Assembly: GCA_018654745.1 (NCBI GenBank)
Contig: JABILA010000006.1
Coordinates: 18,598 to 82,597, forward strand
Length of the DNA: 64,000 nt
Source: Alphaproteobacteria bacterium
GTDB taxonomy: Bacteria > Pseudomonadota > Alphaproteobacteria > UBA2966
Direction of reading: 5' to 3'
Shown here: in pieces, positions 20,826 through 39,911 of the stretch
Layout of the letters: the number at the start of each line of letters is the position of its first letter
Position numbering within the stretch: position 1 is the stretch's first letter
Translations under genes and position numbers: made by a program
The notes under the pieces: model-generated
Told to the model about the DNA's origin: nothing
Database searches by the model: none
What the model saw: only the letters and a program-made list of their open reading frames with translations

Positions 20826-20834
20826 GGAAAGAAA

Positions 20835-21677
20835 ATGTATCTCGCAAAGAAGGTTCGGATGAACCGTTTGTTTGGCAAAGGAAAGTGTCTGGATGTCGCC
20901 ATAGATCATGGTGTCTGTAACGAACCATCATTTCTGGACGGACTGGAAGATATTGCCAAGGTTGTCGGGCAATTGGTTGAAGCCGGACCTGATGCTATCC
21001 AGATGAATTACGGCCAGTCAGATTTACTGCAAAACATTGATGGCAAGAAAAAACCAGCCCTTGTCATGCGCACAGACATGGGCAACCCCTACAACAAGGT
21101 TGCCCACCGCGTGATGTGGTCCCTGATGCAAAATGCGGAGGAGCCCATTTTGGCCGCCCTGCAAATGGATGCAGCTTGTGTCGTCATCAATCTGTTCATG
21201 GTGCCGGATGAACCCGATCTTTTCCGGCAATGCGTCAAGAATATTTCCACCATCCGCAATGAATGTGAAAAATACCACATGCCCTTGATGATCGAACCTC
21301 TGGTCATGCAGTCCAATTCGGAACGCGGCGGTTACATGGTGGACGGCAATACAGATGACATTGTGACATTGGTCCGCCTCGCCCGTGAAATGGGGGCCGA
21401 CATTGTCAAAGCCGACCCAACTAATGAAGCAGCAGATTTCCACAAGGTTGTCGAAGCCGCACGCTGTCCTGTCCTGGTACGGGGCGGCGGCAAGGAGGAT
21501 CTGAAAACCGTATTCAGGAAATCACATGCCCTGATGGAACAGGGGGCCATGGGCATGGTCTATGGTCGCAATATTTATCAGCATGATAATCCCTCTCGCG
21601 TTGTCAAATCCCTGATGGCCATGATCCATGACGGTGCCACAGGAGATGACGCCTGGGCCTTGTACGAAGCGTCCTGA
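20835..21677 (+). CDS. class I aldolase of the DhnA/LsrF/AroA' (DeoC/LacD) family
   Basis: N-terminus (RLFGKGKCLDVAIDHGVCNEP) matches the AroA'/LsrF pattern. Schiff-base Lys region GADIVKAD. 280 aa. Confidence 0.7.
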   Translation: MYLAKKVRMNRLFGKGKCLDVAIDHGVCNEPSFLDGLEDIAKVVGQLVEAGPDAIQMNYGQSDLLQNIDGKKKPALVMRTDMGNPYNKVAHRVMWSLMQNAEEPILAALQMDAACVVINLFMVPDEPDLFRQCVKNISTIRNECEKYHMPLMIEPLVMQSNSERGGYMVDGNTDDIVTLVRLAREMGADIVKADPTNEAADFHKVVEAARCPVLVRGGGKEDLKTVFRKSHALMEQGAMGMVYGRNIYQHDNPSRVVKSLMAMIHDGATGDDAWALYEAS

Positions 21678-21705
21678 CCACAGGCAGCAACGGAGACGTA
21701 TCAGG

Positions 21706-23211
21706 ATGGGATCATATTTACTGGGACTGGATGCCGGAAACACTGTCACCAAGGCAGTGTTGTTTGATACGGCTGGCAACCAGGTCGCCTCCCACGCTTG
21801 TCCTGGCACGTCTCAACATCCTGAACCTGGCCACGTTGAACGCTCCTTGCCCGATCTTTGGCAACAGGCCAGCGAGGCCATCAGGATTTGTATCGAACGG
21901 TCTGGAGTTGATCCGTCGCAAATCCTGGGCGTCGGCTGCAGCGGGCACGGTAACGGCCTCTATCTGCTGGACAAACAAAACCTGCCATTGCTGGGTATCC
22001 AGTCGCTCGACAGTCGTGCGGTCGAAACAGTTGATGAATTTGCAGCGGACGGGCGCGATGATCTGATTTATGACATCTGCCTGCAAAAACCGTGGCCCTC
22101 ACAGACGGCGACCCTTCTGGCCTGGCTAAAACGCCATGCCCCCGACATTTACGCCCAAACCGGGACAGCGTTTTTGTGCAAGGACTATCTGAGATTTTGT
22201 CTGACCGGGACAATCGGCAGTGACTATTCGGATATGAGTGGCTGCGGCCTGCTGCGCCTTCCGTCTCTGGAATATGATCAGGAATTGCTGACGCACTATG
22301 GTCTGGAGGATTGCCCGAACCTGCTGCCGCCCCTGTCTCAATCGACAGATATTATTGGCAAGGTCACGCCAGAAGCGGCCGAACAAACCGGCTTGCAGGC
22401 CGGCACGCCGATGGTCGCAGGTCTCTTTGATATTGTTGCAAGTGCGCTTGGTGCAGGCACCACACAACCTGGTCAGGCCTCCATCGTCGCAGGGACCTGG
22501 AGCATCAATCAGGTGGTTGTTGAACAACCCGTTTCCGATCCCTCAATCTTCATGGCCGCGGCAATTTCCCCTGACAGGTTTGTTGAAGCCGAAGCCAGTG
22601 CCACCTCTGCGACAAACCTTGCCTGGATGGTACGCGAATTTTTGACAGATAATGACATGCAGGCGGATGAGAGCACTGTACTGGCGCATTGCAATGAACT
22701 GGTTGCTGGCGTCGAGTTAGTTCCAGGTTTGCCGATCTTTCATCCCTTTATATATGGCTCTGGTAGCAATGGTTCAGCCCGGGCCGGTTTTTACGGTATC
22801 GGCGGCTGGCACACACGCGCGCACATGATCCACGCGATTTATGAAGGCGTGGTTTTTGGACATCTTCAGCACATAGCAAAGTTGAGAAACGCCGGTGTCG
22901 ACTTTAACAGCGCCACCTTGTCAGGTGGTGCATCACGCAGCCCGATCTGGCCGCAGATGTTTGCGGACATCCTGGATGTTGAAGTTACGGTTTCCGAGTG
23001 TACCGAGACAGGTGCCAAAGGCGCCGCCATTGCGGCAGGTGTCGGACTTTCCCTGTTCGCGGACCTGACTGCGGGTACTGCAGCTATGTCACAAGGCGAT
23101 CACAGCTATTATCCTGATCCTCTTAAACAGCAGATTTATTGGCAACGCTTTGAAATATTTGAAAAATTGTGTGCTTCCATGACCGCCATCTGGGAAAAAC
23201 TGGCGGAATAA
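21706..23211 (+). CDS. FGGY-family carbohydrate/polyol kinase
   Basis: Start moved to Met 21706 (GGAG RBS). N-terminal LGLDAGNTVTKAVLFD (FGGY N-domain) plus the C-domain. Confidence 0.8.
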   Translation: MGSYLLGLDAGNTVTKAVLFDTAGNQVASHACPGTSQHPEPGHVERSLPDLWQQASEAIRICIERSGVDPSQILGVGCSGHGNGLYLLDKQNLPLLGIQSLDSRAVETVDEFAADGRDDLIYDICLQKPWPSQTATLLAWLKRHAPDIYAQTGTAFLCKDYLRFCLTGTIGSDYSDMSGCGLLRLPSLEYDQELLTHYGLEDCPNLLPPLSQSTDIIGKVTPEAAEQTGLQAGTPMVAGLFDIVASALGAGTTQPGQASIVAGTWSINQVVVEQPVSDPSIFMAAAISPDRFVEAEASATSATNLAWMVREFLTDNDMQADESTVLAHCNELVAGVELVPGLPIFHPFIYGSGSNGSARAGFYGIGGWHTRAHMIHAIYEGVVFGHLQHIAKLRNAGVDFNSATLSGGASRSPIWPQMFADILDVEVTVSECTETGAKGAAIAAGVGLSLFADLTAGTAAMSQGDHSYYPDPLKQQIYWQRFEIFEKLCASMTAIWEKLAE

Positions 23212-23225
23212 ATCTAAACACAATA

Positions 23226-25160
23226 TCAGCTCTGTGCCGCCTTCTTCCTGTTCAGTTGATAGTTTTCGAATTTCGGTGACCGGGTCATCGACCAGTAATC
23301 AACCAACCGCCATGGCATGACCGAAAATACGCGCCCGGCTTTGTTCCGGTAATAGGTCGACATGCCGGGATGAGACCAGACCATTTGCTCATGTTCGGCA
23401 TCTACTTTGCGCACATAATCATCCAATGCTTCCGGTTTGACATCGATCGATGCCAGATCCTCGGTGACAATCTTCTCAAGGCAAACAGCAATATAATTGG
23501 CCTGACATTCAGCGGTGAAAATTGCGCTGCCCCCATGCCCCAATCCGGTATTTGGCCCTTGCATACAAAACAGATTGGGGAAGTCCGGGACCGTTATCCC
23601 GATATAGGCTGTGGGGTTCTCGTCGGCCCAGGCGTCCTCCAGTCGACGACCACCCAGTCCCGCAATATTCAAACGTGACGCCATTTCCGTGATCTTGAAC
23701 CCTGTCGAATAAATGACAACATCAGCCGGATGGTGCTGGTCATCACAGGTCTTTATCCCGGTTTGATCAAAATGCTCAATGCCCTCCGTAACCAGTTCGA
23801 CATTGTCTTTTCGCAGCGATTTATACCAGCTGTTATCCAGCAGGATGCGCTTGCCATAGGGTGGATAGGTCGGTGTACATTTTCCAATCAGGTCAGGACG
23901 GCCTTCCAGTTCCTGTTCGATATGGCGGGTCATCTCCTGACGATGGCGGTCGTTGGCCCTGTTCAGGGAACGTGCGGGATGCGGCCATGTCGGATCAATT
24001 CGAAGTGATGGTAACAGACCATCGCCATAGCGCCACAACATTGTAAATCGATACCAGGCGGCATAAAGCGGTACGTTCTTCAGCAGCCATTGTGCACCTT
24101 CGGGAAGGGCATCCTGATAACGGGGAATGGGGCGCACCCATTGGGCGCTGCGTTGATATACGGCAAGAGACGCGACATCGTTCGCAATCTCCGGCACGAT
24201 TTGCATGGCCGATGCGCCGGTCCCGATAATCGCGACATGTTTGCCTTTCAAGTCCGTTCCCGACGGCCATCGCGCCGTGTGAAAACTTGTGCCCTGAAAG
24301 TCATCGGCACCTTTCAACGATGGCATGGAAACCTGGCTAAGCTGTCCAATGGCGCTGACAACCGCCATGGCCTCAAGCCGCTCTTCGCCATCGTTCGTTG
24401 ACAATGTGACCTGCCAGCAAGACTTTTCCTGATCCCAGAAAGCCGCGGTTACCCGGGTCTCGAACCGTATCGCCTGGCGTAAATCCAGTTCTTCGGAAAT
24501 GCACTCAAGATAATCCTGAATCTCTGATCGCGGTGAAAAATTCCGGCTCCAGGAATATCGGTTGCCAAAAGAATATGAATAGGCGTGATTAGGCGTATCA
24601 ACAGCGCAACCAGGATATGTGTTTTCAAACCAGGTTCCGCCAACCTCAGTGTTTCGCTCGACGGTAATATAGTTGATGCCCATTTTTTGTAGCCGGTATC
24701 CAAGCGCCAGGCCACTTGCACCGGCACCGACAATAACGACTGGCCGGGTCTGTTTCTCATGTCCCGATGTGACCTCGACAGAATCTGTAGCCTCCGGCGT
24801 AAATCCCATTTGCTCGCGCATCATGGGGGCATATTCCGGTGGCACGGCTTCGCTGAGACAAGTACTCATCATCTCAACCATCAGATCATCACCAGGAACC
24901 TCAATCGCAGTAGCCTGATCAGCCCGTGACAATAGTTCAACCGCAGCAGCCCTGATCTCAGATTGAATATGTTCAGGAAAACCAGCCGCTTCATCTGCAA
25001 TCAAACTGACATCACGCGCAGGGCGAAAAGGCTCAGATAACCAACGACGATCACCTGATATCTGAAACAAGACCATCAGCAATACCCGTAAATCAGCAGA
25101 TTGAACTGCCGTTGCTAACGCAGCAGTATACCGCACTTTCTGATCGAGCATATTTGTCAC
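23226..25160 (-). CDS. Baeyer-Villiger (class B flavoprotein) monooxygenase with N-terminal extension (HAPMO-like)
   Basis: 644 aa. Rossmann VVIVGAGASGL, BVMO fingerprint FQGTSFHTARWP and a second GTGASA motif. About 140-aa N-terminal extension as in 4-hydroxyacetophenone monooxygenases. Confidence 0.8.
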   Translation of the reverse strand: MTNMLDQKVRYTAALATAVQSADLRVLLMVLFQISGDRRWLSEPFRPARDVSLIADEAAGFPEHIQSEIRAAAVELLSRADQATAIEVPGDDLMVEMMSTCLSEAVPPEYAPMMREQMGFTPEATDSVEVTSGHEKQTRPVVIVGAGASGLALGYRLQKMGINYITVERNTEVGGTWFENTYPGCAVDTPNHAYSYSFGNRYSWSRNFSPRSEIQDYLECISEELDLRQAIRFETRVTAAFWDQEKSCWQVTLSTNDGEERLEAMAVVSAIGQLSQVSMPSLKGADDFQGTSFHTARWPSGTDLKGKHVAIIGTGASAMQIVPEIANDVASLAVYQRSAQWVRPIPRYQDALPEGAQWLLKNVPLYAAWYRFTMLWRYGDGLLPSLRIDPTWPHPARSLNRANDRHRQEMTRHIEQELEGRPDLIGKCTPTYPPYGKRILLDNSWYKSLRKDNVELVTEGIEHFDQTGIKTCDDQHHPADVVIYSTGFKITEMASRLNIAGLGGRRLEDAWADENPTAYIGITVPDFPNLFCMQGPNTGLGHGGSAIFTAECQANYIAVCLEKIVTEDLASIDVKPEALDDYVRKVDAEHEQMVWSHPGMSTYYRNKAGRVFSVMPWRLVDYWSMTRSPKFENYQLNRKKAAQS

Positions 25161-26087: not shown

Positions 26088-26194
26088 AGCGTTTCCGGGC
26101 TTAACGGAAACGCAGTTTTGCTTTTAACTCAAGGTGCGCTCCAAATTTTAATGCAGAAGCGATTCCGTTTAAGTCGGAATCGCCCTGGGTCCAG

Positions 26195-27214
26195 CTACAA
26201 GGTCTGGCGATACTTTTCTGCATCCCAGTTCACCAGCTGTTTTTCTTCCTCTTCCGTGAGGTAACGAACGGCTGCAGATGCGGGCACGCGACGCACGACC
26301 TCAGCCAGCGCTTTCAGCATTTCCACGCCGCCAGCGACAAGGGATTTGTGGTGCACAACGCCTACACCCTTCAGGGCGACAGCTTTGGGCCGCAGGGGAT
26401 CGCCCGACGGAGATTGGACAAACTCTGCAAGTTCACCAAGGGTTTGCGTACCTTCGATACCACTGCCCAGGAAAACAACATGATCAGGATAGAGCGAACC
26501 ACCGCAGGCCAGATCAAATCCACTGGCGACCAACCCGGACTGATGGATTATCTCTGCATCGGCCACAACAAAATCTGTCCCGGCGCAAGCATCCGACAAA
26601 ATCTGACGGGACGGTTCGATAATCGGGACTGCCTTTGTTTCAAGTCTGTCTTCAACATCCTGCATTAATTCCCGGGCTTCAACGGGGCTATCTCCACCAA
26701 CGACCAGTCCGTGGTTCTGGATCACCAGAACGTCGCATTGTTTTATCGCCAGTTGTTTGGCGACAAGCCGGGTAAGCGGCATACCTGGCTGGGAATAAGG
26801 GATAAATCCCCAGCGAATGCCATCAAGCTTCCTGGCCAAAATATCTGCGGTATTCTGTTGAACGGCGTGGACAATTGCGTTGATGGAATGAGTGTGAAAA
26901 ACCACTCGATGATGCATAAGGGAATGTAGCGTCGTTTCGATAGAGGGGCGTAACCCGACCGGGCCAATAGATAATGCGGCACCTTCAACGGGATCATCAC
27001 AATTGTCTTCGATGTTCCGGTTCACCCGGGCTGGATCAACAGCAACAAAAACATCATCTGTGTCTGCATGTTGCAACCATTTCCCCGACGCCTTAACCCA
27101 CATCAGGTTGCCGTCAATCTTGATAGACGTATTCCCGCCAGCGCCCTGGATCAGCAAAGGATCAGCCCCCAGGGCCTGTGACACACTTAAGAAATCTGGA
27201 GAAATATCAACCAT
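26195..27214 (-). CDS. class II aldolase/adducin-family protein (stand-alone YuxG N-domain-like)
   Basis: 339 aa. GAGGNTSIK and HTHS zinc-ligand region. Paralogous to the N-domain of the downstream aldolase-SDR fusion. Confidence 0.65.
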   Translation of the reverse strand: MVDISPDFLSVSQALGADPLLIQGAGGNTSIKIDGNLMWVKASGKWLQHADTDDVFVAVDPARVNRNIEDNCDDPVEGAALSIGPVGLRPSIETTLHSLMHHRVVFHTHSINAIVHAVQQNTADILARKLDGIRWGFIPYSQPGMPLTRLVAKQLAIKQCDVLVIQNHGLVVGGDSPVEARELMQDVEDRLETKAVPIIEPSRQILSDACAGTDFVVADAEIIHQSGLVASGFDLACGGSLYPDHVVFLGSGIEGTQTLGELAEFVQSPSGDPLRPKAVALKGVGVVHHKSLVAGGVEMLKALAEVVRRVPASAAVRYLTEEEEKQLVNWDAEKYRQTL

Positions 27215-27230
27215 TTACAGTTCTTTCAAA

Positions 27231-28079
27231 TTACAATGTGCGAGAGACCCAGGTTGGCGAAACACCACCTTCAAACAATTCCGATTGTGCAGTGGGCATG
27301 ATATCGACGCCGTCGAAAAGAGCCTGATGAATGCCGGTCAAAACAAGAAAGGTATCAAAGCCTGCATTATGGGCACCCACAACATCATGGTCGTAAGAAT
27401 CGCCCACAAACAAAGGCCTGATACACCCACAAGCCTTTAAACGCTCTTGCACGATGTCATAAACAAAAGGATAGGGTTTGCCGACCCAGATCACCTTGCC
27501 GCCTGCCTCTTCATATCCTTTTGCAATCATGCCTGTGCTGGCCACCAACTCTGCGCCACCCAGTGCAGCGAAATCGGGATTACTACACAGCAGTGGTTTA
27601 CCGGCAGAGATGAGATGCGGTAGCAAATCCGTCTGCCAGGTCCCGACAAGATTTGCTGGCATGCCGGACAAATAGACAAAATTACATGCATTGAGATCAC
27701 CCACGATCTGGAGTCCGTCAATCTCCGCCGACAGTTCATCAGAAGCTTCATTCGGGCTGGCGATGTGGTAACAGTTTGCACCCATGTCTTTTACGAGATC
27801 ACGCAAGTGGTGGGCTTTCGCGACTTCCCCTGATGTAACGACATCGTCTATCAAATCACCGTCAATGCCGAGAGACACAAGGCGATCAAGATTTGCGTTG
27901 GCACTTCGACCGCTGTTGCTGAGCACAAGGATCGACTTGCCTTGACTATGCAAATGTTGAAGAACATTTGTCACATTCGGGTACAGCGCGTTGCCATCGT
28001 GCAGAACACCAAATTGGTCAAATACAAAGCCATCATATTGTTCGGCAACCTGCAGCAAACCCTGAACGACGGCACTCAC
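27231..28079 (-). CDS. HAD-superfamily subfamily IIA hydrolase (sugar-phosphate phosphatase-like)
   Basis: 282 aa. DxD-type N-terminus (FVFDQFGVLHDG) and C-terminal GDSYDHDVVGAHNAG. Confidence 0.7.
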   Translation of the reverse strand: MSAVVQGLLQVAEQYDGFVFDQFGVLHDGNALYPNVTNVLQHLHSQGKSILVLSNSGRSANANLDRLVSLGIDGDLIDDVVTSGEVAKAHHLRDLVKDMGANCYHIASPNEASDELSAEIDGLQIVGDLNACNFVYLSGMPANLVGTWQTDLLPHLISAGKPLLCSNPDFAALGGAELVASTGMIAKGYEEAGGKVIWVGKPYPFVYDIVQERLKACGCIRPLFVGDSYDHDVVGAHNAGFDTFLVLTGIHQALFDGVDIMPTAQSELFEGGVSPTWVSRTL

Positions 28080-29353
28080 GACCCTACCGCACCGTGCAGG
28101 GCGATCAGAGCCGCACCAAACGCAGGTTCGGTTTCTGCTGCCGCGATTACTTTTGTCCCGAGAATTCGTTCTCGAACCTTAAGCCAGACCGGATTTTGAC
28201 TGCCCCCGCCCGAGGTTTTGATCAATGTCGGGTATGGCACACCATGGGCCTGCATCAGGTCAAATCCTCTTTTTTCGATGCGCGCAATCGATTCGAACAG
28301 ACCCGCCAGGAAAAGGGCAGGATCATCAGGTCGGGGCTCGGTTCGGCTTTCAAGACCAGCGTCTGATATGGGAAAGCGCTCACCCTTTGAGGCCAACGGG
28401 TAATAATCCAGACCCGTGGCAACATCGGGATCGATCTTCAGCGACAATGCGGACATCTCTTCCGGTGTGAAGTGTTTCAATAACGCACCGCCACCAGTGT
28501 TGCTGGCCCCGCCCGCAATCCAGTTTTCAAATAGCCGATGGCTGTAGATACCAAAGCTGGGCACATCAACCCTTTCGGGTGAAACCGATTTTATTACCAA
28601 AGTCGTTCCTAATGAGGTCACGGCCGTGCCAGGCGAAAGATTGTCCAGGCCACTGGCCGCGATAAAGGCAGCCGTGCCGTCCGTTGTGCCTGTAAATATT
28701 CGACAATCGTCGGAAAATCCAAATTCGTCAGACATCATTTCGGTCACTCTGCCAACAGAGGTCGCCGGAGGATAAACAACCGGCAAAGCATCCGATTGGA
28801 ACGGCAGCGCCGTGGGGTCAAACAGCCAGTCGGCTGTTGATGGATCATAACCCAGCTTCAAGGCATTATTCTGATCACTGAAATCAAAGCGGCCTGAAAG
28901 ATTTCCGGCGAGCCAGTCTGCCTGGTGGACGACATGAAAATCTGCTGGCTGATCCACTGACCACAAATCCAGCACACGACCGAGCGTTGGCGGAATTTCC
29001 TCGCCATCTACAAGCGAACGTCCCTCGAGTAAATCGATGGATTCTTTTGATGGCAGTTCGTTGTAGAACTTCGGTGCGGACAGGGGCACACCTGCGTCGT
29101 CACATAACAAGACCGTGCCGGATTGGCCGTCCACCGCGATCCCGTCGACCTGATCCAGGCTGATTTGCCCCGACAGGTTTTCAAGAATACTGTTTACCCC
29201 AGCCTTCCAGGCCTGAGGATCACGTGCTTCATCTGCATCGGAAAACCTGATGTCCGCATTGGCAACTGTATTGGCCTGTTGATCAATACAAATGCCACGC
29301 AAGCCCGACGTACCAGCATCCAGACCCAAATAGAGTTGTTTGGTTGAAATCAC
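28076..29353 (-). CDS. FGGY-family carbohydrate kinase (short form)
   Basis: 425 aa. LYLGLDAGTSGLRGICID N-terminus. 4-nt overlap with the HAD gene. Confidence 0.75.
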   Translation of the reverse strand: MISTKQLYLGLDAGTSGLRGICIDQQANTVANADIRFSDADEARDPQAWKAGVNSILENLSGQISLDQVDGIAVDGQSGTVLLCDDAGVPLSAPKFYNELPSKESIDLLEGRSLVDGEEIPPTLGRVLDLWSVDQPADFHVVHQADWLAGNLSGRFDFSDQNNALKLGYDPSTADWLFDPTALPFQSDALPVVYPPATSVGRVTEMMSDEFGFSDDCRIFTGTTDGTAAFIAASGLDNLSPGTAVTSLGTTLVIKSVSPERVDVPSFGIYSHRLFENWIAGGASNTGGGALLKHFTPEEMSALSLKIDPDVATGLDYYPLASKGERFPISDAGLESRTEPRPDDPALFLAGLFESIARIEKRGFDLMQAHGVPYPTLIKTSGGGSQNPVWLKVRERILGTKVIAAAETEPAFGAALIALHGAVGS

Positions 29354-29363
29354 TTAACCTCTC

Positions 29364-31319
29364 TCAGATTACCCGGTCGTTGCCACCGTCGACAGGTAGC
29401 TGTGCGCCGGTTGTTGCGGGCAAGGTGCCATCGATAAATGCACAAACGGCAAGCGCCACATCACGTGATTTTATTTCAGCTTTCAAGAGATTCCGCGTTT
29501 TATATTCATCGATTGTCAAACCATATCGTGCCGCCGATGTTGCGAGGGCTTCCGGTGTCCAGAGCCTGGTATCAAATACGGCGTCAGGATGCACGGCATT
29601 TACTGTCACGCCTTCCGGTGCCAGTTCCAGTGCGGCAACGCGCATGAGTTGGGTAAGGCCTGCTTTTGATACGGAATAAGCTGCGGCACCACCACCTGGT
29701 GCGGCCACATTACGTGAGCCAATGACAACAATCCCCGGATTGATGCCGTGACGAAGGAAGGGCACGGCCTGCTTGATCAACTTTCGATGAGAACTGAGGT
29801 TAACAGCCAGTATGGCATCCCAGTCCTCGTCCCCGAGAGTTTCGATCTTGGCCCCGGTTCGAAATATTCCGGCGTTCGACACGACAATATCCAACCCACC
29901 ATAATTGTCGACAACATACGCCAATGCATTTGCCACAGCGGCTTCATCCGTCAGATCGAGGACAAGACCTTCGTACCCTGGTTTGGACATTGTCTCCGAT
30001 ATGGAGGGATCAATGTCGAGGCCAATGACAACAGCCCCTTTTTCAAACAGAACCTCTGCACAAGCCTGACCAATGCCTGCTGCGGCCCCACTGACGACCG
30101 CGATTTTGCCTGTTAATTCAGAAGCAGGTTTCTGGCGTTTGAGCTTCGCTTGCTCCAGTTCCCAATATTCCAGATCCCGCAAGTCCTGTTCGCCAAGCCC
30201 CTGCCAATCACCGATCTGATCTGCATAATACATGGCCTCCAGCGTTGTGTCGGCAACATCGGCGGAGACAGAGGCTCGTTTAAGATTGGGGCCAAAACTG
30301 CGGCAGCGACCATCTTCAAACAACGCCCAATGAGGAAACGGTGCCAACATGGTTAAATCAGCATCTTCTGCCCGACCAAAATAGCCGACATATTCCGAAC
30401 GGAATGCCGCCAGTCCACTTTCCGGATCGTCGCCCAGCATCGCGGGGTAAGGCTTGTTGTGAATGACATGTTCCGGGGTCAGCGTACCTTTACGCAACAA
30501 TGCACCATATCTTTGTACATTGGATCCAGGGATGGACTTTGATTTTCGTGAAATCACCGCACCGCCAGCGAGATCGCTAACCCCTTTTCGGGCTGCAGCG
30601 ACACCGACCGGATCACCTGCGTCCGTTTGGGTGAATTCAGCCCTGCCGTAATTGTTACGCAACCAGGCTTCTGCTTCATCCACAACAAGGATCATTTTTT
30701 CATAAGACCTGAAGGCGTCATCATCGAATGTGAAGACACCGTGGTTTTCCGAAATGACAGCGTCATATGCTGACAGGTCCGTGTTGGCGATGACATCACG
30801 GAACTGGATCGCCAGATCGAAGCCCGGTTTGATATAGGGCAGAACCAGAACCCGGTCGCCGTATATCTCTGCGAAACGTTCCTTGCCGCCTGGTGTATTT
30901 GAAATCGTCAGAATGGCGTCTGCATGAGAGTGATCGACAAACTTGAACGGTATCAATGCATGCACAATTGCTTCGATGGACGCCGCTGCCGCTGATGCAT
31001 CCAGACGGGCACAGAGAACTTCATTGACCATGTCAGCGTCACTGAGGCTTTCCAGGCCAGCCAGTTTCAACACACGCCGCAGGTCCAGAGCGGTAAAGCC
31101 TTCCGGCCCCATAGACGCCAGATCAAAGCCGCTGGCCTTGACCCATATGATGTCCAGTTTTTCCCCGAACCTGTCGGTGTGTGTCGATTTGACGGAGGTA
31201 TTGCCGCCACCATGCAGCACCAGCGCCGTATCAGCACCGATCAGTCGTGATGAATAGGCCCGCAAATCCAGGTCAGTTTTTGCCTGTGCTGCGTCTGTGT
31301 TGTTCCAACGGGATTGCAT
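29364..31319 (-). CDS. bifunctional class II aldolase-like / short-chain dehydrogenase (RhaD-ADH / YuxG-type)
   Basis: 651 aa. N-terminal aldolase-like domain (VLHGGGNTSVK, DHSHA) fused to a C-terminal SDR (KIAVVSGAAAGIGQA; YSVSKAGL). Confidence 0.8.
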   Translation of the reverse strand: MQSRWNNTDAAQAKTDLDLRAYSSRLIGADTALVLHGGGNTSVKSTHTDRFGEKLDIIWVKASGFDLASMGPEGFTALDLRRVLKLAGLESLSDADMVNEVLCARLDASAAAASIEAIVHALIPFKFVDHSHADAILTISNTPGGKERFAEIYGDRVLVLPYIKPGFDLAIQFRDVIANTDLSAYDAVISENHGVFTFDDDAFRSYEKMILVVDEAEAWLRNNYGRAEFTQTDAGDPVGVAAARKGVSDLAGGAVISRKSKSIPGSNVQRYGALLRKGTLTPEHVIHNKPYPAMLGDDPESGLAAFRSEYVGYFGRAEDADLTMLAPFPHWALFEDGRCRSFGPNLKRASVSADVADTTLEAMYYADQIGDWQGLGEQDLRDLEYWELEQAKLKRQKPASELTGKIAVVSGAAAGIGQACAEVLFEKGAVVIGLDIDPSISETMSKPGYEGLVLDLTDEAAVANALAYVVDNYGGLDIVVSNAGIFRTGAKIETLGDEDWDAILAVNLSSHRKLIKQAVPFLRHGINPGIVVIGSRNVAAPGGGAAAYSVSKAGLTQLMRVAALELAPEGVTVNAVHPDAVFDTRLWTPEALATSAARYGLTIDEYKTRNLLKAEIKSRDVALAVCAFIDGTLPATTGAQLPVDGGNDRVI

Positions 31320-31326
31320 TGCTGGT

Positions 31327-32556
31327 TTACGCCTTGCTGCTATCGATCAATTTGACCAACTCGTCGATACAACGCTCAACAAACACCGGATCTTCGGCAC
31401 CGGCTTCAACCTCGATCAGAGGAATATTGTTGGGCAGCATCTCCCGCACGGCCTGATGAAAGGCCGCGTCGCTTTCGGCGTCATACAAGACCCCACCTTC
31501 AACGGAATAGCTGCTGATACCTTTTGTCGGCAAAACGAAAACGGTATTTGATTTGGCATCTTTCAAACGATCACGAATTTCTTCCATCATTCGGACCAGT
31601 TCCGGACCCGTTGTTCGCGGCACGAAAATCACCGGATTATGGTAGCTATATAGACGGTCCTTATAGGCGTCAGGCACCGTATTCGGCTCGTCTAACATAA
31701 TGCCGATGTGGTCCACACCACCTGGCACAACCACCTGCGGAATACCCAGTTTGCCCGCGACCGTCAGGCGATTCTCGTCAGCTGCACGGATACCGCCAAA
31801 CAGGGCATCTGTAATGTCACCCAGGGCATAGTCAAAGACGGCGGTGATGAAGCCTTCTTTCATCAATTGTTCCATGGCCCGGCCACCGGCCCCCACAGCG
31901 TGAAAGACAATGGCTTCATATCCGCGCTCGGCGAGCAATTCAATTGCGTGCATGGACCCCTGGGTCAAAACACCAAGGTTGGTGATGCCGACCACTGGCT
32001 TACTGGCGTCAAACTCGATCTTGATCGCCGCGTCGGCCATGCCAACAATTGCCCCCGCTGCATTTGAGAGTATTTTACGGAAAAACGGGTTCAGGCCGAG
32101 AATATCACTGACAGAGAACATCATCGTGATGTCCTTGATGCCGACATAACCCGAGGTGTCACCAGAGGCCATTGTCGATAACATCAACTTGGGGAAACCA
32201 TAAGGCAACGCCTGCATGACCTGGCAGCAATTGTTCGTTCCCTGAGTGCCACCCAGGCTAATTACACCATCAACCTTGTTGGCTGTAATCAGGTCCAGCA
32301 TGGTATCCGTTGCACCCCGTACCATGACATCGGAGGCTGTTTCCCGTGAAGGATTATCCCGCAAGACGGCAAGTTCCGTACCACCCTTACTGGCGATTTC
32401 AGCATTGCTTATGTCTGCAGGTGCGGCAGCATCTCCAACGACACCAATATCGATTAACAAGGCCTTGCCACCCATGCGAACGATTTCATCCCGCAGGTAA
32501 ATGCATTCCGCACCTTTGGTATCCAGCGTCGCCAATACTGCAATTGTTTTTGACAT
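31327..32556 (-). CDS. UPF0261-family protein (Tm-1 N-terminal domain-like, putative nucleotide-binding)
   Basis: Start moved to Met 32556 (GGGAG RBS), giving 410 aa. The MSKTIAVLATLDTKGAE N-terminus and glycine-rich loops are typical of UPF0261. Confidence 0.65.
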   Translation of the reverse strand: MSKTIAVLATLDTKGAECIYLRDEIVRMGGKALLIDIGVVGDAAAPADISNAEIASKGGTELAVLRDNPSRETASDVMVRGATDTMLDLITANKVDGVISLGGTQGTNNCCQVMQALPYGFPKLMLSTMASGDTSGYVGIKDITMMFSVSDILGLNPFFRKILSNAAGAIVGMADAAIKIEFDASKPVVGITNLGVLTQGSMHAIELLAERGYEAIVFHAVGAGGRAMEQLMKEGFITAVFDYALGDITDALFGGIRAADENRLTVAGKLGIPQVVVPGGVDHIGIMLDEPNTVPDAYKDRLYSYHNPVIFVPRTTGPELVRMMEEIRDRLKDAKSNTVFVLPTKGISSYSVEGGVLYDAESDAAFHQAVREMLPNNIPLIEVEAGAEDPVFVERCIDELVKLIDSSKA

Positions 32557-32584
32557 GATATTGCTCCCTTGCTGTTCAGAGGAC

Positions 32585-33445
32585 CTATTTGGAGAATTTG
32601 AGGGCTGTAAATTCGTTGGCGGCCTCTGTGACGGCGCGCTCAATCGGCAGGCGTTCTGTAGATGACCCGGTCCAGAAACCATGCCCCGACGTGTGATCCA
32701 GCATGTACTGGGCATCATCCGGTGTTTCCATCGCCGCACCGTGGCCAACCAGGATCACATCCGGGTCGATTTTACGAACTGCTGCGTAGACATCTTCAGA
32801 TTCAGCAGCTGTGTCTTCGATGGTCGAGCCATTGTCATAACCGGTCAGGCCACCCTTGGTGGTTCCGGCGTGATAACAAAAAATGTGAGGACGCGCGCCT
32901 TCGACGATGGCGAGGCTGTCTTCTTTGGTAAAGGCCAGACCGATGGATACCATGTCCATTTCTTCACGCGCCAGTTTCAGCATCTCGATTTCATTTTGCA
33001 GGGTGACGCCCGTGCTGGTCAGGACGTTGTAGATTTCGCTGTCCTTGTCGACGTAACTAATGGAAGGGCCAATGTTGGAAACCGAATTCACACCCATATC
33101 CTTGCATTCCTGCAGAACCATCCGCATGTCTTTCAAGGGATCATTTGCATTCAGACAAGCACAAACAAAGGCCTTGCCATCGAGCGCTGGCATAATGTCT
33201 TCTCGTGTATAGGTCAGGGTTTGTTTGTTGCTGTCCAGGATCGGCCACATCATCGACATTGTGCCCATGCCGTTTGCACGCAACCGCGCACCTGAAAAAG
33301 TATTGATGCAATCTGTTCCCGCGCGCTCCAGCAATTTGGCCACCAAACCGCTACCGGCACTGGAAATCATAATCGGCTCGTGACGATCAACCTTGCCTTT
33401 CAGGTTGGCAAGAATTTGTTCTGTCGAAATACGCTTGGTAATCAT
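32585..33445 (-). CDS. phosphoenolpyruvate-hydrolase-like TIM-barrel protein (Tm-1 C-terminal domain-like)
   Basis: 286 aa. Immediately upstream of the UPF0261 gene, the classic split version of the Tm-1 two-domain architecture. Confidence 0.6.
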   Translation of the reverse strand: MITKRISTEQILANLKGKVDRHEPIMISSAGSGLVAKLLERAGTDCINTFSGARLRANGMGTMSMMWPILDSNKQTLTYTREDIMPALDGKAFVCACLNANDPLKDMRMVLQECKDMGVNSVSNIGPSISYVDKDSEIYNVLTSTGVTLQNEIEMLKLAREEMDMVSIGLAFTKEDSLAIVEGARPHIFCYHAGTTKGGLTGYDNGSTIEDTAAESEDVYAAVRKIDPDVILVGHGAAMETPDDAQYMLDHTSGHGFWTGSSTERLPIERAVTEAANEFTALKFSK

Positions 33446-33460
33446 GGGTCTTCTCCTGAG

Positions 33461-34312
33461 TTAAGAATGAACCGAAGCGTCCGCCGACAGGCGATGCACT
33501 TCCAGAAACTGTTTGATATTTTGGGTGACCGCCGATTTGTGCGCTTCGGGCTCAAGATACTTTGGCGGGGCGTGAAAATAGGTGGCATTGGCCAGGGCAC
33601 CGCAAATCTCACGGGCGATCATGGCCGGATGCAACGGGTCGGCGTTGTTGCCAACCACAAGTGCCGGTACCGCGATGGTTTGCAAAACACCCAGACGCGA
33701 AACGGGCCGGTCGGCAACAAGGGTTGGCAAAACCATTGCTGCCGCCTCTGCCTGAGGTCGCTCCATCGCGCCCACCAAAGAAGAAGCACAGGATGGATTA
33801 TCGATTTCAGCAGACATATATACCGGATGGGATCGGAGTTTTTCGCGGGCAACGTCTGGACCTGATTGTGCGATCCAGTTGCCAATGTCCTCAATGACAC
33901 CAAGGTGGGGCCGACCAGGTTGATCCAGCCACGCCGGACGCACAAGAAACATGGCTTGAACCAGGTCAGGCCGCATGAGTGCGAGAGCCAGGGCAATCCC
34001 GGAGCCCATGGATATGCCCCCGGCAATGACTTTTTCGATACCAAGGTGATCCAGCAAAGCGGCGGCGATATCGGTGTAGACTTCAAAGCCCACCTGTTCG
34101 GACAAGGGCCGCGATGCAGACAATTCGCTGTCGCCGTGCCCGGGCATATCTACCGAAATCAACCGATACCCTTCCAGGGCATCCAGTGCAGCTGATGCCT
34201 GGCGGCGGTCGGCTGTCAGGCCATGCATAAACAGCACGTCAGGGCCATGACCAGTTACGTCATAGTTCACATCACTTTCGTTGTACCTGAAACTGGCCAC
34301 AAATTCCCCCAA
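33461..34312 (-). CDS. alpha/beta-fold hydrolase
   Basis: HGLTADRR... and nucleophile elbow GISMGSG. 283 aa. First gene of the seven-gene operon. Confidence 0.75.
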   Translation of the reverse strand: MGEFVASFRYNESDVNYDVTGHGPDVLFMHGLTADRRQASAALDALEGYRLISVDMPGHGDSELSASRPLSEQVGFEVYTDIAAALLDHLGIEKVIAGGISMGSGIALALALMRPDLVQAMFLVRPAWLDQPGRPHLGVIEDIGNWIAQSGPDVAREKLRSHPVYMSAEIDNPSCASSLVGAMERPQAEAAAMVLPTLVADRPVSRLGVLQTIAVPALVVGNNADPLHPAMIAREICGALANATYFHAPPKYLEPEAHKSAVTQNIKQFLEVHRLSADASVHS

Positions 34313-34433
34313 GGATGGTTTCCCAGAGTCCGGAGTTTAGGGGTAAACGATGTTTCAGGATTTTACGTGTCGCGGGAGTTTTATAACTATTCGCTCATTA
34401 CCGCCAAAATTTGAGCCTTGATTATGTCGATGA

Positions 34434-35342: not shown

Positions 35343-36410
35343 ATGAACGACCCGACAATCCGCCAGCGAAAACTGGATCATGTTGATCTGGCCATGAACG
35401 ACGCCGCGGTTTCTGGCGTTGATGCAGGCTGGTCTGATGTCACCCTGGTGCCGGTTGCCCTGCCCAATCTAAATCCAGGTGATGTGGATCCTGGTTGCAC
35501 CTTTCTGGGCAAATCACTGGGGGCACCTGTATTCATCGCCGGTATGACGGGCGGACATCCTGATCTTGAAAAAGTTAATCTGGCCCTGGCGATAGCGGCA
35601 CAGGATCATGGCGTTGCCATGGGCGTGGGAAGCCAACGCGCTGCACTTGTCGATGAAGAGCTGGTTCAATCCTTCGCTGTCGTCCGACAACAGGCCGCTG
35701 ATGTCTTTATTTGTGGGAACATTGGAATTTCACAAATTCTGGATGGTCAGGCAGGCAAGGATGTTCTGAACAAACTGGTTGATATGATCCGGGCTGATGC
35801 CCTTGCCGTACATATCAATGTCTTGCAGGAACTTGTGCAGCCGGAAGGAGAGATCAATCTCGGAAAGGCCTATGAAGGACTTGCAGAAATGGTTGCAACT
35901 TCGCCGGTTCCGGTGGTTGTCAAGGAAACGGGATGTGGCATCGACCGGGAAACGGCGAGCCGCTTGGCGGAAACAGGAATTGCTGCACTTGATGTCGGGG
36001 GCATGGGTGGCACCAGTTTCACGGCTATCGAAGGATTACGCGCCAGCTCGGCACAGGATCATGAGGGCGCGCGACGGGCCAGGACATTTGCCATCTGGGG
36101 CATTCCAACAGCTTGCAGCGTCCTCGAAGTCGCCAATGTCGGACTGCCTGTAATTGCCACGGGCGGCATCTCGGATGGCCTGCAGGCGGCGAAAGCATTA
36201 TCGCTCGGCGCTCAGCTCGCCGGTATAGGTCGAAAAATGCTGACTGCCGCCATCCAGGGCCCGGAGCAGGCAAGTGCTGAACTCGGTCGTATCATTGAGG
36301 AAATCAGAATTAGCCTGGCCCTTTCCGACTGCCGCAATTTGGATGAATTCAATTCCCGGACACCCGTCTTAACCGGCACCGTTGCACAATGGGATGCTCG
36401 CGCAAAATAA
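35343..36410 (+). CDS. fni: type 2 isopentenyl-diphosphate delta-isomerase (FMN-dependent, IDI-2/Fni)
   Basis: RKLDHV N-terminal motif, AGMTGG, VGSQ, VHINVLQELVQPEG, VVVKETGCG, DVGGMGGT, ATGGI. Collinear with the IDI-2 signature blocks. Confidence 0.8.
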   Translation: MNDPTIRQRKLDHVDLAMNDAAVSGVDAGWSDVTLVPVALPNLNPGDVDPGCTFLGKSLGAPVFIAGMTGGHPDLEKVNLALAIAAQDHGVAMGVGSQRAALVDEELVQSFAVVRQQAADVFICGNIGISQILDGQAGKDVLNKLVDMIRADALAVHINVLQELVQPEGEINLGKAYEGLAEMVATSPVPVVVKETGCGIDRETASRLAETGIAALDVGGMGGTSFTAIEGLRASSAQDHEGARRARTFAIWGIPTACSVLEVANVGLPVIATGGISDGLQAAKALSLGAQLAGIGRKMLTAAIQGPEQASAELGRIIEEIRISLALSDCRNLDEFNSRTPVLTGTVAQWDARAK

Positions 36411-36819: not shown

Positions 36820-37401
36820 ATGAGCAACGTGATGAACGCTTCGGCAAACAATGAACTGACTTTTATTTTCGGCGGCGCCCGTTCGGGCAAAAGCCGCTTT
36901 GCTGAATCGTTTGCGCTGTCACAGGCATCCGAAAAGAACCTTGAACCCATTTATGTGGCGACGGGTGAAATTCGGGATGAAGAAATGCGTCAGCGCATTG
37001 AGCATCATCAAAAAAGTCGCGACCCCCGCTGGCAAACACTTGAAGAACCCTTGCGATTGAGCGAATTGATCCTTCGTGAGAGTACGACGGAAAGAGTGTT
37101 GTTGATCGACTGTCTGACGCTTTGGCTGAGTAATCAGCAGGAACAACAGGCAAATATATCAACCGAAACGCTGTCCCTTTGTCAGGCCCTTCAACAGGCC
37201 AAAGGTCCCATCGTCCTGGTAAGCAACGAAGTTGGCCTGGGGATCGTCCCGGCCAACGAACTCGCGCGCCACTTCCGTGATGAGGCTGGTCGCCTGAACC
37301 AGGCAATCGCCGCTGTTTGTCAAAATGTCTATCTCGTCGCCGCGGGATTGACCCTCCCCCTCAAAACCAACAATGTCCCTTTGGGACCGGAGATCCCCTG
37401 A
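36820..37401 (+). CDS. cobU: adenosylcobinamide kinase / adenosylcobinamide-phosphate guanylyltransferase
   Basis: P-loop FIFGGARSGKS and the CobU/CobP fold. Alternative start at 36832. Confidence 0.85.
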   Translation: MSNVMNASANNELTFIFGGARSGKSRFAESFALSQASEKNLEPIYVATGEIRDEEMRQRIEHHQKSRDPRWQTLEEPLRLSELILRESTTERVLLIDCLTLWLSNQQEQQANISTETLSLCQALQQAKGPIVLVSNEVGLGIVPANELARHFRDEAGRLNQAIAAVCQNVYLVAAGLTLPLKTNNVPLGPEIP

Positions 37402-38424
37402 ATGTCAAAACTTTCTTTTATTTCTGCTGCAGATCTGGCCGCCGCCCTTGCTTCCATGCCCGAAGCAGATGATGCCGCAGCTTCACTGGCCCGCGCGCGC
37501 CAGGAACAACTGACCAAACCCGTCGGCTCGCTGGGCCGCCTGGAAGAACTCGCCATCTGGATGGCATCGTGGCAAGGACAGGAAAAGCCGCAACTGGAAA
37601 ACCCGGCCTGTCTGGTATTTGCCGGCAACCATGGTGTCGCCGCGCGCGGTGTTTCTGCTTATCCCCCGGAAGTGACCTTTCAAATGGTCATGAATTTCGA
37701 AGCCGGTGGTGCCGCCATCAACCAGTTGACCAATCTTGCTGATGCAACCTTGAAAGTGACAGCCCTGGATCTGGATACCCCGACCCAGGACTTCACCCAA
37801 ACCGCCGCCATGACTGAGGCCGAATGCTGTGCCGCATTGCAGGCAGGCGCCGACGCTGTGCCTGACAATGCAGACATGGTTCTGGTCGGTGAAATGGGTA
37901 TCGGCAATACCACGGCCGCAGCAGCCGTTTGCAACGCTGTTTTTGGTGGCGCTGCCACCGACTGGATTGGCCCTGGAACCGGTGTCGACGACAAAGGTAT
38001 GGCAATCAAAAAAGAAACTGTTACAACGGCCATTGCCTTGCACGGTGACAATCAAACCAGTGCCTTTGAATGTCTGCGCACAGTCGGTGGACGTGAACTG
38101 GCGGCTATTGCTGGTGCCGTCATCGAGGCACGCCATCGTGGTATTCCGGTTCTTTTGGATGGCTATATTTCAACGGCAGCGGCTTCGGCATTGACCCGCG
38201 ATAACCCTGCCGCCCTGGATCATGCAATTATTTCCCACGTGTCCATGGAACCCGGCCACAAGCGACTGGCTGAAAAACTCAATCAACGCCCTGTACTGGA
38301 TCTGGATTTGCGTCTTGGTGAAGCCAGTGGTGCAGCAATTGCCCTGCTGATCGTCCGGGCGGCACTTGCAACGCACAATGGCATGGCCACATTCGGGGAA
38401 GCCGGTGTCAGTACGGCATCATAA
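37402..38424 (+). CDS. cobT: nicotinate-nucleotide--dimethylbenzimidazole phosphoribosyltransferase
   Basis: 340 aa. PVGSLGRLEELAIW and GEMGIGNTT motifs of CobT. Confidence 0.9.
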   Translation: MSKLSFISAADLAAALASMPEADDAAASLARARQEQLTKPVGSLGRLEELAIWMASWQGQEKPQLENPACLVFAGNHGVAARGVSAYPPEVTFQMVMNFEAGGAAINQLTNLADATLKVTALDLDTPTQDFTQTAAMTEAECCAALQAGADAVPDNADMVLVGEMGIGNTTAAAAVCNAVFGGAATDWIGPGTGVDDKGMAIKKETVTTAIALHGDNQTSAFECLRTVGGRELAAIAGAVIEARHRGIPVLLDGYISTAAASALTRDNPAALDHAIISHVSMEPGHKRLAEKLNQRPVLDLDLRLGEASGAAIALLIVRAALATHNGMATFGEAGVSTAS

Positions 38425-39181
38425 CCACCTCCAGGATTTGGCAGCAGCCTTTGTCCTGCTGACCAGAATTCCGCTGCGCTGGGATCGGTTCTCCGATGGC
38501 TCACCCGATTTCAACCGGGCCGTCTGGGCTTTCCCTGTCGTCGGCGCGTTCGTCGCTATTGTAGCAGCGGTGACATTTGCCATGGCGACCAGCTTCGGGC
38601 TTCCCGGGCTGGTCGCTGGCGCATTGGCAATCGTGGCAATGGTTTTGTTAACAGGGGCCTTTCATGAAGATGGGCTCGCCGATGTTGCAGATGGTTTCGG
38701 TGGCGGTAAATCCTTGCCCCGGAAACTGGAGATCATGCGTGACAGCCGCGTCGGTGCTTATGGCGTCATCGCCATCGTCCTGGCCATGATCTTGCGCGTT
38801 AGCGGCTTGTCCGTGCTTGCGGCTGGCGATGCTGCCTCTGCCTTGATCGTCTCGGCCATGCTGTCGCGCCTGATGATGGTTTATATCATGCGCTATATGC
38901 CCCCGGCCCGTAAGGATGGCCTGGCACATGATACCGGCAAACCGGAAATGCCACAGTTGCTGACAGGCACAGTTCTGACATTTGTTGTCTGTCTTTTTCT
39001 GCTGGGGCCATCGACAACGGTTGCCTGCTTCATTGTCGCTTTCGTCGCCTGTGTTGCGATCGGCGGTTTGGCAATGCACCAGATCAACGGTTTTTCCGGC
39101 GATGTCCTGGGAGCATCCCAACAGATAACAGAGATCGCCGTACTGTTGTTCCTCGTTGGAAGCTGGGGAGCCGCTGCATGA
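38366..39181 (+). CDS. cobS: adenosylcobinamide-GDP ribazoletransferase (cobalamin synthase)
   Basis: Integral membrane protein. LTRIPLRW N-terminal motif, HEDGLAD, DSRVGAYG. True start uncertain (overlaps the cobT 3' end). Confidence 0.8.
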   Translation: MQRTMAWPHSGKPVSVRHHNHLQDLAAAFVLLTRIPLRWDRFSDGSPDFNRAVWAFPVVGAFVAIVAAVTFAMATSFGLPGLVAGALAIVAMVLLTGAFHEDGLADVADGFGGGKSLPRKLEIMRDSRVGAYGVIAIVLAMILRVSGLSVLAAGDAASALIVSAMLSRLMMVYIMRYMPPARKDGLAHDTGKPEMPQLLTGTVLTFVVCLFLLGPSTTVACFIVAFVACVAIGGLAMHQINGFSGDVLGASQQITEIAVLLFLVGSWGAAA

Positions 39182-39885: not shown

Positions 39886-39911
39886 CGGAACCGCCGCGGG
39901 ATATCTAGTAT

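Follow-up and report, generated by a model that had tools for sequence, protein, structure and literature searches.

In a 64,000-nt stretch of an alphaproteobacterial contig (JABILA010000006.1; the window, to whose first letter all positions refer unless a locus is named), seven packed minus-strand genes combine a UPF0261 protein and a PF09370 barrel, the unfused counterpart of the tomato protein Tm-1, with carbohydrate enzymes. Our favoured reading, to which we give about an even chance, is a phosphorylative, aldolase-based route in which the UPF0261 protein would serve as kinase, the barrel as isomerase or epimerase, and a fusion protein as aldolase and short-chain dehydrogenase/reductase (SDR). 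UPF0261/PF09370 pairs are known in bacteria, archaea, fungi and plants; our literature search found no paper on the function of PF09370, of the pair or of bacterial Tm-1-like proteins.

A putative operon around a split Tm-1 pair

All seven genes are present as minus-strand open reading frames (ORFs) between 34312 and 26195, and Pfam and NCBIfam assign them the same families as a first-pass annotation of this DNA had done. In order of transcription, they encode an alpha/beta-fold hydrolase, the barrel, the UPF0261 protein, a fusion of class-II aldolase (Aldolase_II) and SDR, a short FGGY-family carbohydrate kinase, a HAD-IIA phosphatase-type hydrolase and a stand-alone class-II-aldolase-like protein. 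They are separated by 15, 28, 7 and 10 nt, a 4-nt overlap (between the FGGY and HAD-IIA genes) and 16 nt, the largest gap being 28 nt and thus within the 30 nt given at first pass. From this spacing alone, the seven genes would be co-transcribed. Together with an upstream regulator gene of the AraC type, they form an eight-gene order that is identical in Labrenzia (Roseibium) alba (L007) and in two independent assemblies of the window's own lineage (L086, L087), and because this order recurs, the arrangement is not due to chance. A marine alphaproteobacterial metagenome-assembled genome (MAG) encodes a protein 100% identical to the barrel, and the same synteny is found in several assemblies.

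The barrel gene (33445–32585) encodes a PEP_hydrolase-like TIM barrel of 286 amino acids (aa) that scores 187.6 bits against PF09370 (cut-off 33.8). The UPF0261 gene (32556–31327) encodes a Tm-1-like ATP-binding protein of 409 aa, composed of an N-terminal PF06792 domain (193.7 bits) and a C-terminal PF23189 domain (206.9 bits; cut-off 27). The mechanically called UPF0261 ORF (473 aa, from a TTG at 32748) reaches too far upstream; the true start codon is the ATG at 32556, which is preceded by the Shine–Dalgarno sequence AAGGGAG and matched by independent gene calls on metagenome contigs carrying an identical barrel gene. The two genes are adjacent, co-directional and separated by 28 nt, but not fused. 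Tm-1 itself is known for binding a viral replicase. In line with the description of the pair as a split Tm-1 architecture, the UPF0261 protein matches the Tm-1 structures 3wry/3wrw (E 6e-50) and the barrel matches Mll9387 (2p10; E 3e-34). Tomato Tm-1 and the plant Tm-1-like proteins possess the same two domains with an ATP-binding N-terminal region, the bacterial pair being their unfused counterpart (PMC5028733), whereas the bacterial genes are separate and ordered barrel, then UPF0261.

The UPF0261 protein as a candidate sugar kinase

MarK is, to our knowledge, the sole UPF0261 enzyme with demonstrated activity. Reported in 2025 as the first catalytically active UPF0261 protein, MarK (Saro_1862 of Novosphingobium aromaticivorans; PDB 9MPY) is a kinase that converts ATP to ADP and acts on phenolic hydroxyl groups; it is a homodimer, fully active without a barrel partner, and binds the acceptor within UPF0261 itself (PMC12624787). 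Its gene shares an acetovanillone operon with those for a biotin carboxylase and for a phosphatase that later removes the phosphate, and its ATP and acceptor sites lie ~25 angstroms apart, the transfer mechanism having been left open (PMC12624787).

The MarK structure (9mpy) matches the window protein over its full length (E 9e-57). Both share the two-domain UPF0261 fold, a D-T-K ATP site and the acceptor-binding residues G195, H219 and H306 (the His of the HNP motif). Among 16 aligned subfamily members, D12-T13-K14 and H219 are invariant, and K14 aligns with the ATP-contacting lysine of MarK (K16) and Tm-1 (K20); in MarK this lysine was gained by mutation, whereas it is native in the window protein. 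Because fold, ATP site and acceptor-site residues are shared with MarK, phosphoryl transfer from ATP to a hydroxyl group, yielding ADP, would be expected, and the full-length match, the native K14 and the retained G195, H219 and H306 argue for a kinase.

The aromatic pocket, by comparison, has changed. Four of its seven MarK residues differ in the window protein (T196 to Val, F283 to His, I285 deleted, H348 to Tyr), and both the His in place of F283 and the Tyr (Y350) in place of H348 are invariant in the window's subfamily. MarK moreover stands alone, without PF09370, whereas UPF0261 proteins of the window's type have a near-obligate barrel and sugar-enzyme neighbours. With neither the T196/F283/I285/H304/H348 pocket nor an AcvCDEF carboxylase/phosphatase operon, the window protein does not class as a MarK-type aromatic kinase. 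As the ATP and acceptor sites are kept and the aromatic pocket is altered, we treat it as a kinase for another, probably more polar substrate and, by analogy with MarK, as a putative ATP-dependent sugar kinase.

The pair's biochemical function, called unknown at first pass, is thus no longer so for UPF0261 since 2025, though the description still holds for the barrel and for the pair. An ATP-dependent phosphoryl or carboxyl transformation had been suggested; its phosphoryl half is now the favoured chemistry, since MarK is an ATP-to-ADP kinase (PMC12624787), while its carboxyl half falls away, no biotin carboxylase or similar gene being linked. Carboxylase genes are absent from the window and from related loci, and with none linked to the pair in any surveyed locus we rejected carboxylation.

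The window protein belongs to the NF002674 subfamily (407.8 bits vs. 335). Plasmid tblastn searches returned UPF0261 paralogues of at most 41% identity in unrelated contexts, including those of Haloferax volcanii and Ruegeria pomeroyi. The family is diverse: such paralogues say nothing about the window's subfamily, and results for the latter do not extend to the whole family.

A conserved barrel with poorly modelled invariant loops

With a Pfam score above gathering and the fold of 2p10, the barrel is a PF09370 member. Its sole structural match, Mll9387 of Mesorhizobium loti (PDB 2P10), is the only solved PF09370 protein and is 28% identical to it. Lys197, in the HAGTTKGG loop, is invariant in the window's barrel subfamily but not conserved in Mll9387. 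Across phyla the barrel retains 64–89% identity, a higher conservation than that of UPF0261 (BLASTP, 85 loci). Its AlphaFold model has a predicted local distance difference test (pLDDT) score of 75 and leaves the invariant loops unresolved; residues 51–76, 195–204 and 261–267 form the most conserved, fully invariant loops, yet their pLDDT is below 50. Mobile lids, or an interface with UPF0261, would be expected to give such values. We infer that the barrel converts a phospho-sugar to a ketose-1-phosphate, as an isomerase or epimerase.

The pair is linked to aldolases across phyla

A scan of one genome per species gave 80 loci, all at least 52% identical to the window UPF0261 protein, from Alphaproteobacteria, Verrucomicrobiota, Bacteroidota, Rhodothermales, Planctomycetota, Myxococcota, Chloroflexota, Acidobacteriota, Gemmatimonadota, Marinimicrobia and Actinomycetota; contig look-ups added loci from Gammaproteobacteria and a MAG labelled Deltaproteobacteria. 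Gene content was assessed by BLASTP of the window proteins against the ORFs of all loci. The barrel gene lies directly upstream of UPF0261 in 79 of the 85 loci, from more than 10 phyla, with gaps of –4 to ~100 nt. About 29–31 loci carry a full-length aldolase–SDR fusion beside the pair, 22–24 the hydrolase, and 21–23 an AraC-type homologue upstream of the pair; the complete seven-gene order recurred, among the surveyed loci, only in L. alba (L007).

About half of the loci join the pair to an enzyme expected to release dihydroxyacetone phosphate (DHAP), and the enzymes differ. At 12 loci of Verrucomicrobiota and Myxococcota, clustering of neighbouring ORFs revealed the fusion to be replaced by genes for an LsrF-like class-I aldolase/thiolase (NF006081, 420 bits vs. 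297), a ribulose-phosphate 3-epimerase (RPE)-like protein and a stand-alone SDR with 54–59% identity to the SDR domain of the fusion. LsrF-like genes are not a clean substitute for the aldolase domain, as L099 and L162 carry both. In Klebsiella indica, the operon comprises hydrolase, barrel, UPF0261 and a FucA-like aldolase (NF005984, 384 bits vs. 264). A single co-directional cluster of Celeribacter (L171) encodes a ribose-type CUT2 ATP-binding cassette (ABC) transporter, hydrolase, barrel, UPF0261 and fusion, without any further kinase or isomerase. A PDB search with the CUT1 binding protein of L007 gave no match.

Class-II aldolases of the FucA/RhaD type and LsrF release DHAP from 1-phospho-2-keto substrates. 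Because its partner enzymes use such substrates, the product of the pair should be of the 1-phospho-2-keto type. The genome-context survey, which the first-pass annotation had named as a possible refutation, thus upheld the linkage of the pair to carbohydrate enzymes across phyla.

Two further observations concern the neighbourhoods of the pair. A 15-kb island of K. indica (L170, 4144–19084) contains two UPF0261/PF09370 pairs in opposite gene orders, together with two FucA-like aldolases, two cupins, an IolG-like dehydrogenase, an AP_endonuc_2 epimerase-like gene and a major facilitator superfamily transporter, and is flanked by transposase genes. On plasmid pHV3 of H. volcanii (L168, 2337–9209), a UPF0261 gene of a 40%-identity subfamily adjoins genes for very large heme-binding CxxCH/DUF7133-cytochrome c proteins; the same type of association occurs in 24 bacterial loci of Planctomycetota, Verrucomicrobiota and Bacteroidota (e.g. 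L069, 11303–14479), and therefore spans two domains of life.

One aldolase–SDR family, several front ends

The fusion gene (31319–29364) encodes 651 aa. Its His130/His132/His193 triad is invariant, as predicted for the metal ligands of a class-II aldolase, and its SDR domain has an invariant G411, G415, I416 and G417 and an invariant N507/S535/Y548/K552 tetrad, as in classical SDRs. The closest NCBIfam equivalog is NF006196, whose cut-off of 831 bits the window fusion misses (742 bits over its full length). Proteobacterial fusions including that of the window score 742 and 733 bits, while pair-linked fusions of Bacteroidota and Rhodothermales reach 920 and 834; the window fusion belongs to a sister clade of the NF006196 family. 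PDB searches with the aldolase domain of the fusion and with the stand-alone aldolase-like protein gave a single match, the uncharacterised 3m4r. We propose that the fusion is a DHAP-releasing aldolase joined to an aldehyde oxidoreductase.

RhaEW/YuxG, a rhamnulose-1-phosphate aldolase/lactaldehyde dehydrogenase (PMC3870299), shares its Aldolase_II + SDR architecture with the window fusion, which retains the catalytic motifs. The window fusion differs, scoring 384.9 bits against the RhaEW equivalog TIGR02632 (cut-off 567.75), a model that none of the scored fusions reaches, and no RhaA, RhaB or RhaM gene lies near it. The classical rhamnose pathway was rejected on these two grounds.

A reciprocal metagenome scan with a fusion alignment as query yielded 80 loci (L088–L167), only two of which carry the pair. 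In 24, a true MtnA gene lies next to the fusion (TIGR00512, 401 bits vs. 279), and nine of these also contain MtnP, the methylthioadenosine phosphorylase (NF006492, 502 bits vs. 437). In two loci, DhaK/DhaL (Dak1/Dak2) genes adjoin the fusion (L162, 8539–12422; L095, 912–3668), and in L162 they adjoin LsrF-like and RPE-like genes as well. MtnA-linked, Dak-linked and pair-linked (Bacteroidota, Rhodothermales) fusions all exceed the NF006196 cut-off (L139, L123, L162, L095, L037, L024), and in a neighbour-joining tree without support values pair-linked and MtnA-linked fusions interleave. Three alternative front ends thus seem to feed one aldolase–SDR family: the pair, MtnP/MtnA and DhaK/DhaL.

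MtnA and MtnP belong to a known pathway. In the DHAP shunt, phosphorylation, isomerisation and class-II aldol cleavage follow one another (PMC6079011, PMC10986504), and 5-deoxyribose is an established case of a kinase–isomerase–class-II aldolase sequence (PMC6079011). The disposal of 5-deoxyribose by MtnK or MtnP/DrdK, MtnA/DrdI and Ald2/DrdA (PMC6079011, PMC10986504) shares its logic with the proposed route, and the NF006196 family found beside MtnA is the aldolase–SDR family in question. The systems differ in that the window's front end is UPF0261 + PF09370, its aldolase is fused to an SDR and its operon has a dedicated PAS–AraC regulator, with sugar ABC transporters in relatives. The operon contains no MtnA, MtnK or MtnP homologue, tblastn finds neither MtnA nor MtnP in the window, and MtnA occurs in only one of the 85 UPF0261 loci, which sets the operon apart from the DHAP shunt in gene content. 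As a separate observation, fusions combined with MtnA/MtnP (e.g. L139, 9218–12089; L162, 6436–13592) apparently represent a fused-aldolase form of the DHAP shunt, which PMC6079011 does not mention.

A proposed route

In the route that we favour, UPF0261 would phosphorylate a small sugar at the expense of ATP, and PF09370, seemingly a phosphate-binding (beta/alpha)8 barrel, would isomerise or epimerise the phospho-sugar, so that kinase and barrel together would yield a 2-ketose-1-phosphate. The class-II aldolase domain of the fusion would cleave this product to DHAP and a short aldehyde, which the SDR domain would oxidise or reduce. The pair would thereby take the place of MtnK or MtnP plus MtnA in the DHAP shunt, and of RhaA plus RhaB in rhamnose catabolism. 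As substrate we consider a deoxy-pentose, a deoxy-hexose or a related ketose most likely, imported in monosaccharide form, which is a guess from the other contexts of the family. The alpha/beta hydrolase may contribute an accessory de-esterifying or lactone-opening step, and the FGGY kinase, HAD phosphatase and aldolase-like genes may form a separable accessory branch. The route, called undescribed at first pass, is probably not of a wholly new kind: apart from its non-homologous front end, it follows the logic of deoxy-sugar and DHAP-shunt pathways (kinase, isomerase, aldolase, aldehyde oxidoreductase).

Several points weigh against this reading. In roughly 35 of the 82 non-redundant loci, no aldolase lies within 8 kb of the pair, which there often adjoins genes for DUF7133-cytochrome c (24 loci) or ThuA-like proteins (16 loci), and pairs of Gfo/Idh/MocA and AP_endonuc_2 genes recur near it; because of these neighbourhoods, the pair may also, or instead, act on oxidised sugars, or serve more than one pathway. 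The known MarK substrates are phenols, not sugars. Within the operon, the aldolase substrate could alternatively come from a second kinase (FGGY), the simple scheme leaves no role for the hydrolase, and the fusion falls just under its family cut-off. The tree of fusions has no support values, L062 carries both MtnA + fusion and the pair, and the substrate and activities of the route are inferred.

Weighing other explanations

The pair could instead be a single two-subunit kinase resembling DhaK/DhaL, the barrel binding the substrate and UPF0261 acting as ATP-binding phosphoryl donor, so that a ketose would be converted to its 1-phosphate with no isomerisation. This would suit the equivalent position that DhaK/DhaL hold beside the fusion, LsrF-like and RPE-like genes (L162, L095), the near-obligate pairing and the fusion of both domains in plants (PMC5028733); the distance of ~25 angstroms between the MarK sites and the open transfer mechanism (PMC12624787) fit as well, and disorder such as the model shows in the invariant barrel loops is what one would see in an interface or lid. 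However, MarK is fully active alone with its acceptor bound within UPF0261, the acceptor-site residues G195, H219 and H306 are retained in the window protein, and the DhaKL analogy comes from two loci only, which makes a two-subunit kinase rather unlikely. We consider it unlikely, too, that the pair resembles MarK in its target, which would be an acidic enol, reductone or phenol-type hydroxyl on an aromatic compound or on a sugar-oxidation product (for instance, a 3-keto-sugar or diketone). The phosphate would then be an activating handle removed later by the HAD phosphatase, and the aldolase substrate would be an intermediate further along the pathway. The substrate of LsrF-type enzymes is a phosphorylated 1,3-diketone, MarK phosphorylates phenolic hydroxyls from which a phosphatase later removes the phosphate, the window contains a HAD phosphatase, and sugar-oxidising neighbours recur (Gfo/Idh/MocA + AP_endonuc_2, ThuA-like and, in 24 loci, DUF7133-cytochrome c). 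Yet the pair is linked to neither carboxylase nor ring-cleavage genes, the aromatic pocket of MarK is replaced or lost (F283 to His, I285 deleted, H348 to Tyr), most loci lack a HAD gene, and the FucA-like and class-II aldolase partners need ordinary ketose-1-phosphates.

A non-catalytic role in the sugar route is improbable. Here the pair would be a co-located or co-regulated sensor, regulator or housekeeping system ("TIM-barrel signal transduction"), with the FGGY kinase or unlinked enzymes supplying the aldolase substrate. The FGGY kinase of the window, the many pairs without any aldolase and the unrelated contexts of distant UPF0261 subfamilies (H. volcanii, R. pomeroyi) are what one would expect of such a role, but the linkage to DHAP-releasing enzymes recurs across phyla with varying gene order and with aldolases that are not homologous, no further kinase is encoded in the Celeribacter and K. 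indica clusters, the 64–89% barrel identity across phyla with invariant polar residues is enzyme-like, and MarK is a true enzyme. Overall, the favoured kinase–isomerase–aldolase route keeps the linkage, phosphoryl chemistry, Tm-1 architecture and regulator of the first interpretation, and abandons its carboxyl chemistry, the idea of a single gene unit and, probably, that of an undescribed route.

Two separable gene modules

The hydrolase, encoded by the first gene of the operon (34312/34300–33461; 279–283 aa; Abhydrolase_1, 68 bits), has a weak similarity to PcaD-type enol-lactonases (64 bits vs. a cut-off of 256). The 425-aa FGGY kinase (29353–28076; FGGY_N 38 bits, FGGY_C 49 bits) scores 102.6 bits against the XylB model TIGR01312 (cut-off 380) and is assigned to the FGGY superfamily only. 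The HAD-IIA protein (28079–27231; 282 aa) exceeds the cut-off of TIGR01459 (166.9 bits vs. 103.75). The stand-alone aldolase-like protein (27214–26195; 339 aa; Aldolase_II, 79.8 bits) resembles the non-SDR part of the fusion and has its best NCBIfam matches in the aldolase halves of bifunctional proteins; it keeps the predicted metal-ligand motifs H-x-H (H-T-H) and NHG. Matches of these accessory proteins to ribulose-bisphosphate phosphatase, ribulose-1-phosphate aldolase and MtnB were discarded as too weak to use (21–41 bits).

FGGY, HAD and aldolase-like genes co-occur in L006, L007 and L012–L014. The closest MAG (L006, 84% identity) carries AraC, hydrolase, barrel, UPF0261, FGGY, HAD and aldolase-like genes without the fusion; in L012–L014 the FGGY, HAD and aldolase-like genes lie upstream of AraC, again without a fusion, and the aldolase-like gene is thus present without the fusion in L006 and L012–L013. 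Conversely, L001, L003, L009 and L010 have the fusion and lack FGGY, HAD and aldolase-like genes. Because the two sets occur apart in other genomes, the seven genes, described at first pass as one operon, are not one evolutionary unit but two separable modules: a core (AraC, hydrolase, barrel, UPF0261 and usually the fusion) and an accessory set (FGGY, HAD and aldolase-like).

Regulation and operon boundaries

The PAS–AraC regulator expected just upstream was found at 35141/35114–34434 on the minus strand (PAS_4 42.6 bits, HTH_18 81.3 bits; 235 aa from a TTG at 35141 or 226 aa from an ATG at 35114) and is conserved with the operon. It is separated by 121–133 nt from the hydrolase gene on the same strand, and phylogenetic footprinting across nine loci revealed a conserved 17-nt motif, AGCGAATAGTTATAAAA, in this gap (34379–34395, minus strand), a candidate operator or promoter element. 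The motif is unique in the window (0.01 matches expected by chance), occurs once in the corresponding gap of L003, L006, L007, L009, L010, L086 and L087, and is conserved in Alphaproteobacteria and Thalassotalea. The PAS–AraC protein probably acts on the operon through this 17-nt site. In Thalassotalea, a TonB-dependent receptor gene is preceded by a second copy (L003, 20741–20756, minus strand), suggestive of a small PAS–AraC regulon.

A consensus promoter and terminator scan returned fewer sites than shuffled sequence, and is uninformative on operon boundaries; internal terminator-like sites in the operon were not above chance. Inspection of the sequence revealed a candidate terminator 13 nt past the last stop codon (26160–26182, minus strand), an 8-bp hairpin CGATTCCG-N7-CGGAATCG that fails the T-run rule of the scan. 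A second hairpin (26089–26113) was picked up by the scan.

Genomic surroundings

A separate co-directional plus-strand locus at 13048–23211 resembles sugar/polyol clusters of the erythritol or Lsr type, with genes for a two-domain ABC ATPase, a BPD_transp_2 permease, a SorC-type regulator (PF04198), an aldo-keto reductase, a GlpD-like FAD dehydrogenase, a DeoC/LacD-family aldolase and a 527-aa FGGY kinase. The stretch that separates this locus from the operon encodes, on the minus strand (23226–25160), a 644-aa flavin monooxygenase/Baeyer–Villiger-like protein; this protein has an N-terminal extension of ~130 residues without a domain match, and its best NCBIfam match, of the pentalenolactone D synthase type, is weak. 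A Sua5-like gene lies in the same flank of the operon as this monooxygenase-like gene.

Beyond the AraC gene, a divergent plus-strand gene (35343–36410) encodes a type-2 isopentenyl-diphosphate isomerase (TIGR02151, 342 bits). A link from this enzyme to 1-deoxy-xylulose phosphate was dropped, the adjacency being confined to the window's lineage (L086, L087) and found at no other pair locus; the isomerase is probably unrelated to the operon. It is followed, at 36820–48020, by a cobalamin lower-ligand/late-biosynthesis cluster (CobU, CobT, CobS, CobO, CobD, CobQ, CbiA-like) with a FecCD/Peripla_BP_2-type ABC importer.

Implications for the Tm-1-like family

The logic of the proposed pathway is already known; what would be new is a front end built from enzyme families of almost unexplored function. 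Extended beyond the window, our interpretation becomes more tentative: UPF0261 and PF09370 could be an unrecognised kinase/isomerase module of many phyla that replaces MtnK/MtnA or RhaB/RhaA in DHAP-yielding deoxy-sugar catabolism, and the plant Tm-1-like proteins could ancestrally have served sugar salvage and only later virus resistance. That the pair supplies a DHAP-releasing aldolase with a ketose-1-phosphate is a prediction open to bench tests, the system being carried by cultured organisms (among them Roseibium album, Thalassotalea psychrophila, Klebsiella indica and a Celeribacter species). If true, this would be the first enzymatic function for the UPF0261/PF09370 pair and would allow thousands of genes now labelled "Tm-1-like" or "phosphoenolpyruvate hydrolase family" to be annotated. 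It would likewise add a new sugar route to abundant marine heterotrophs and provide a lead on the native role of Tm-1 in plants.

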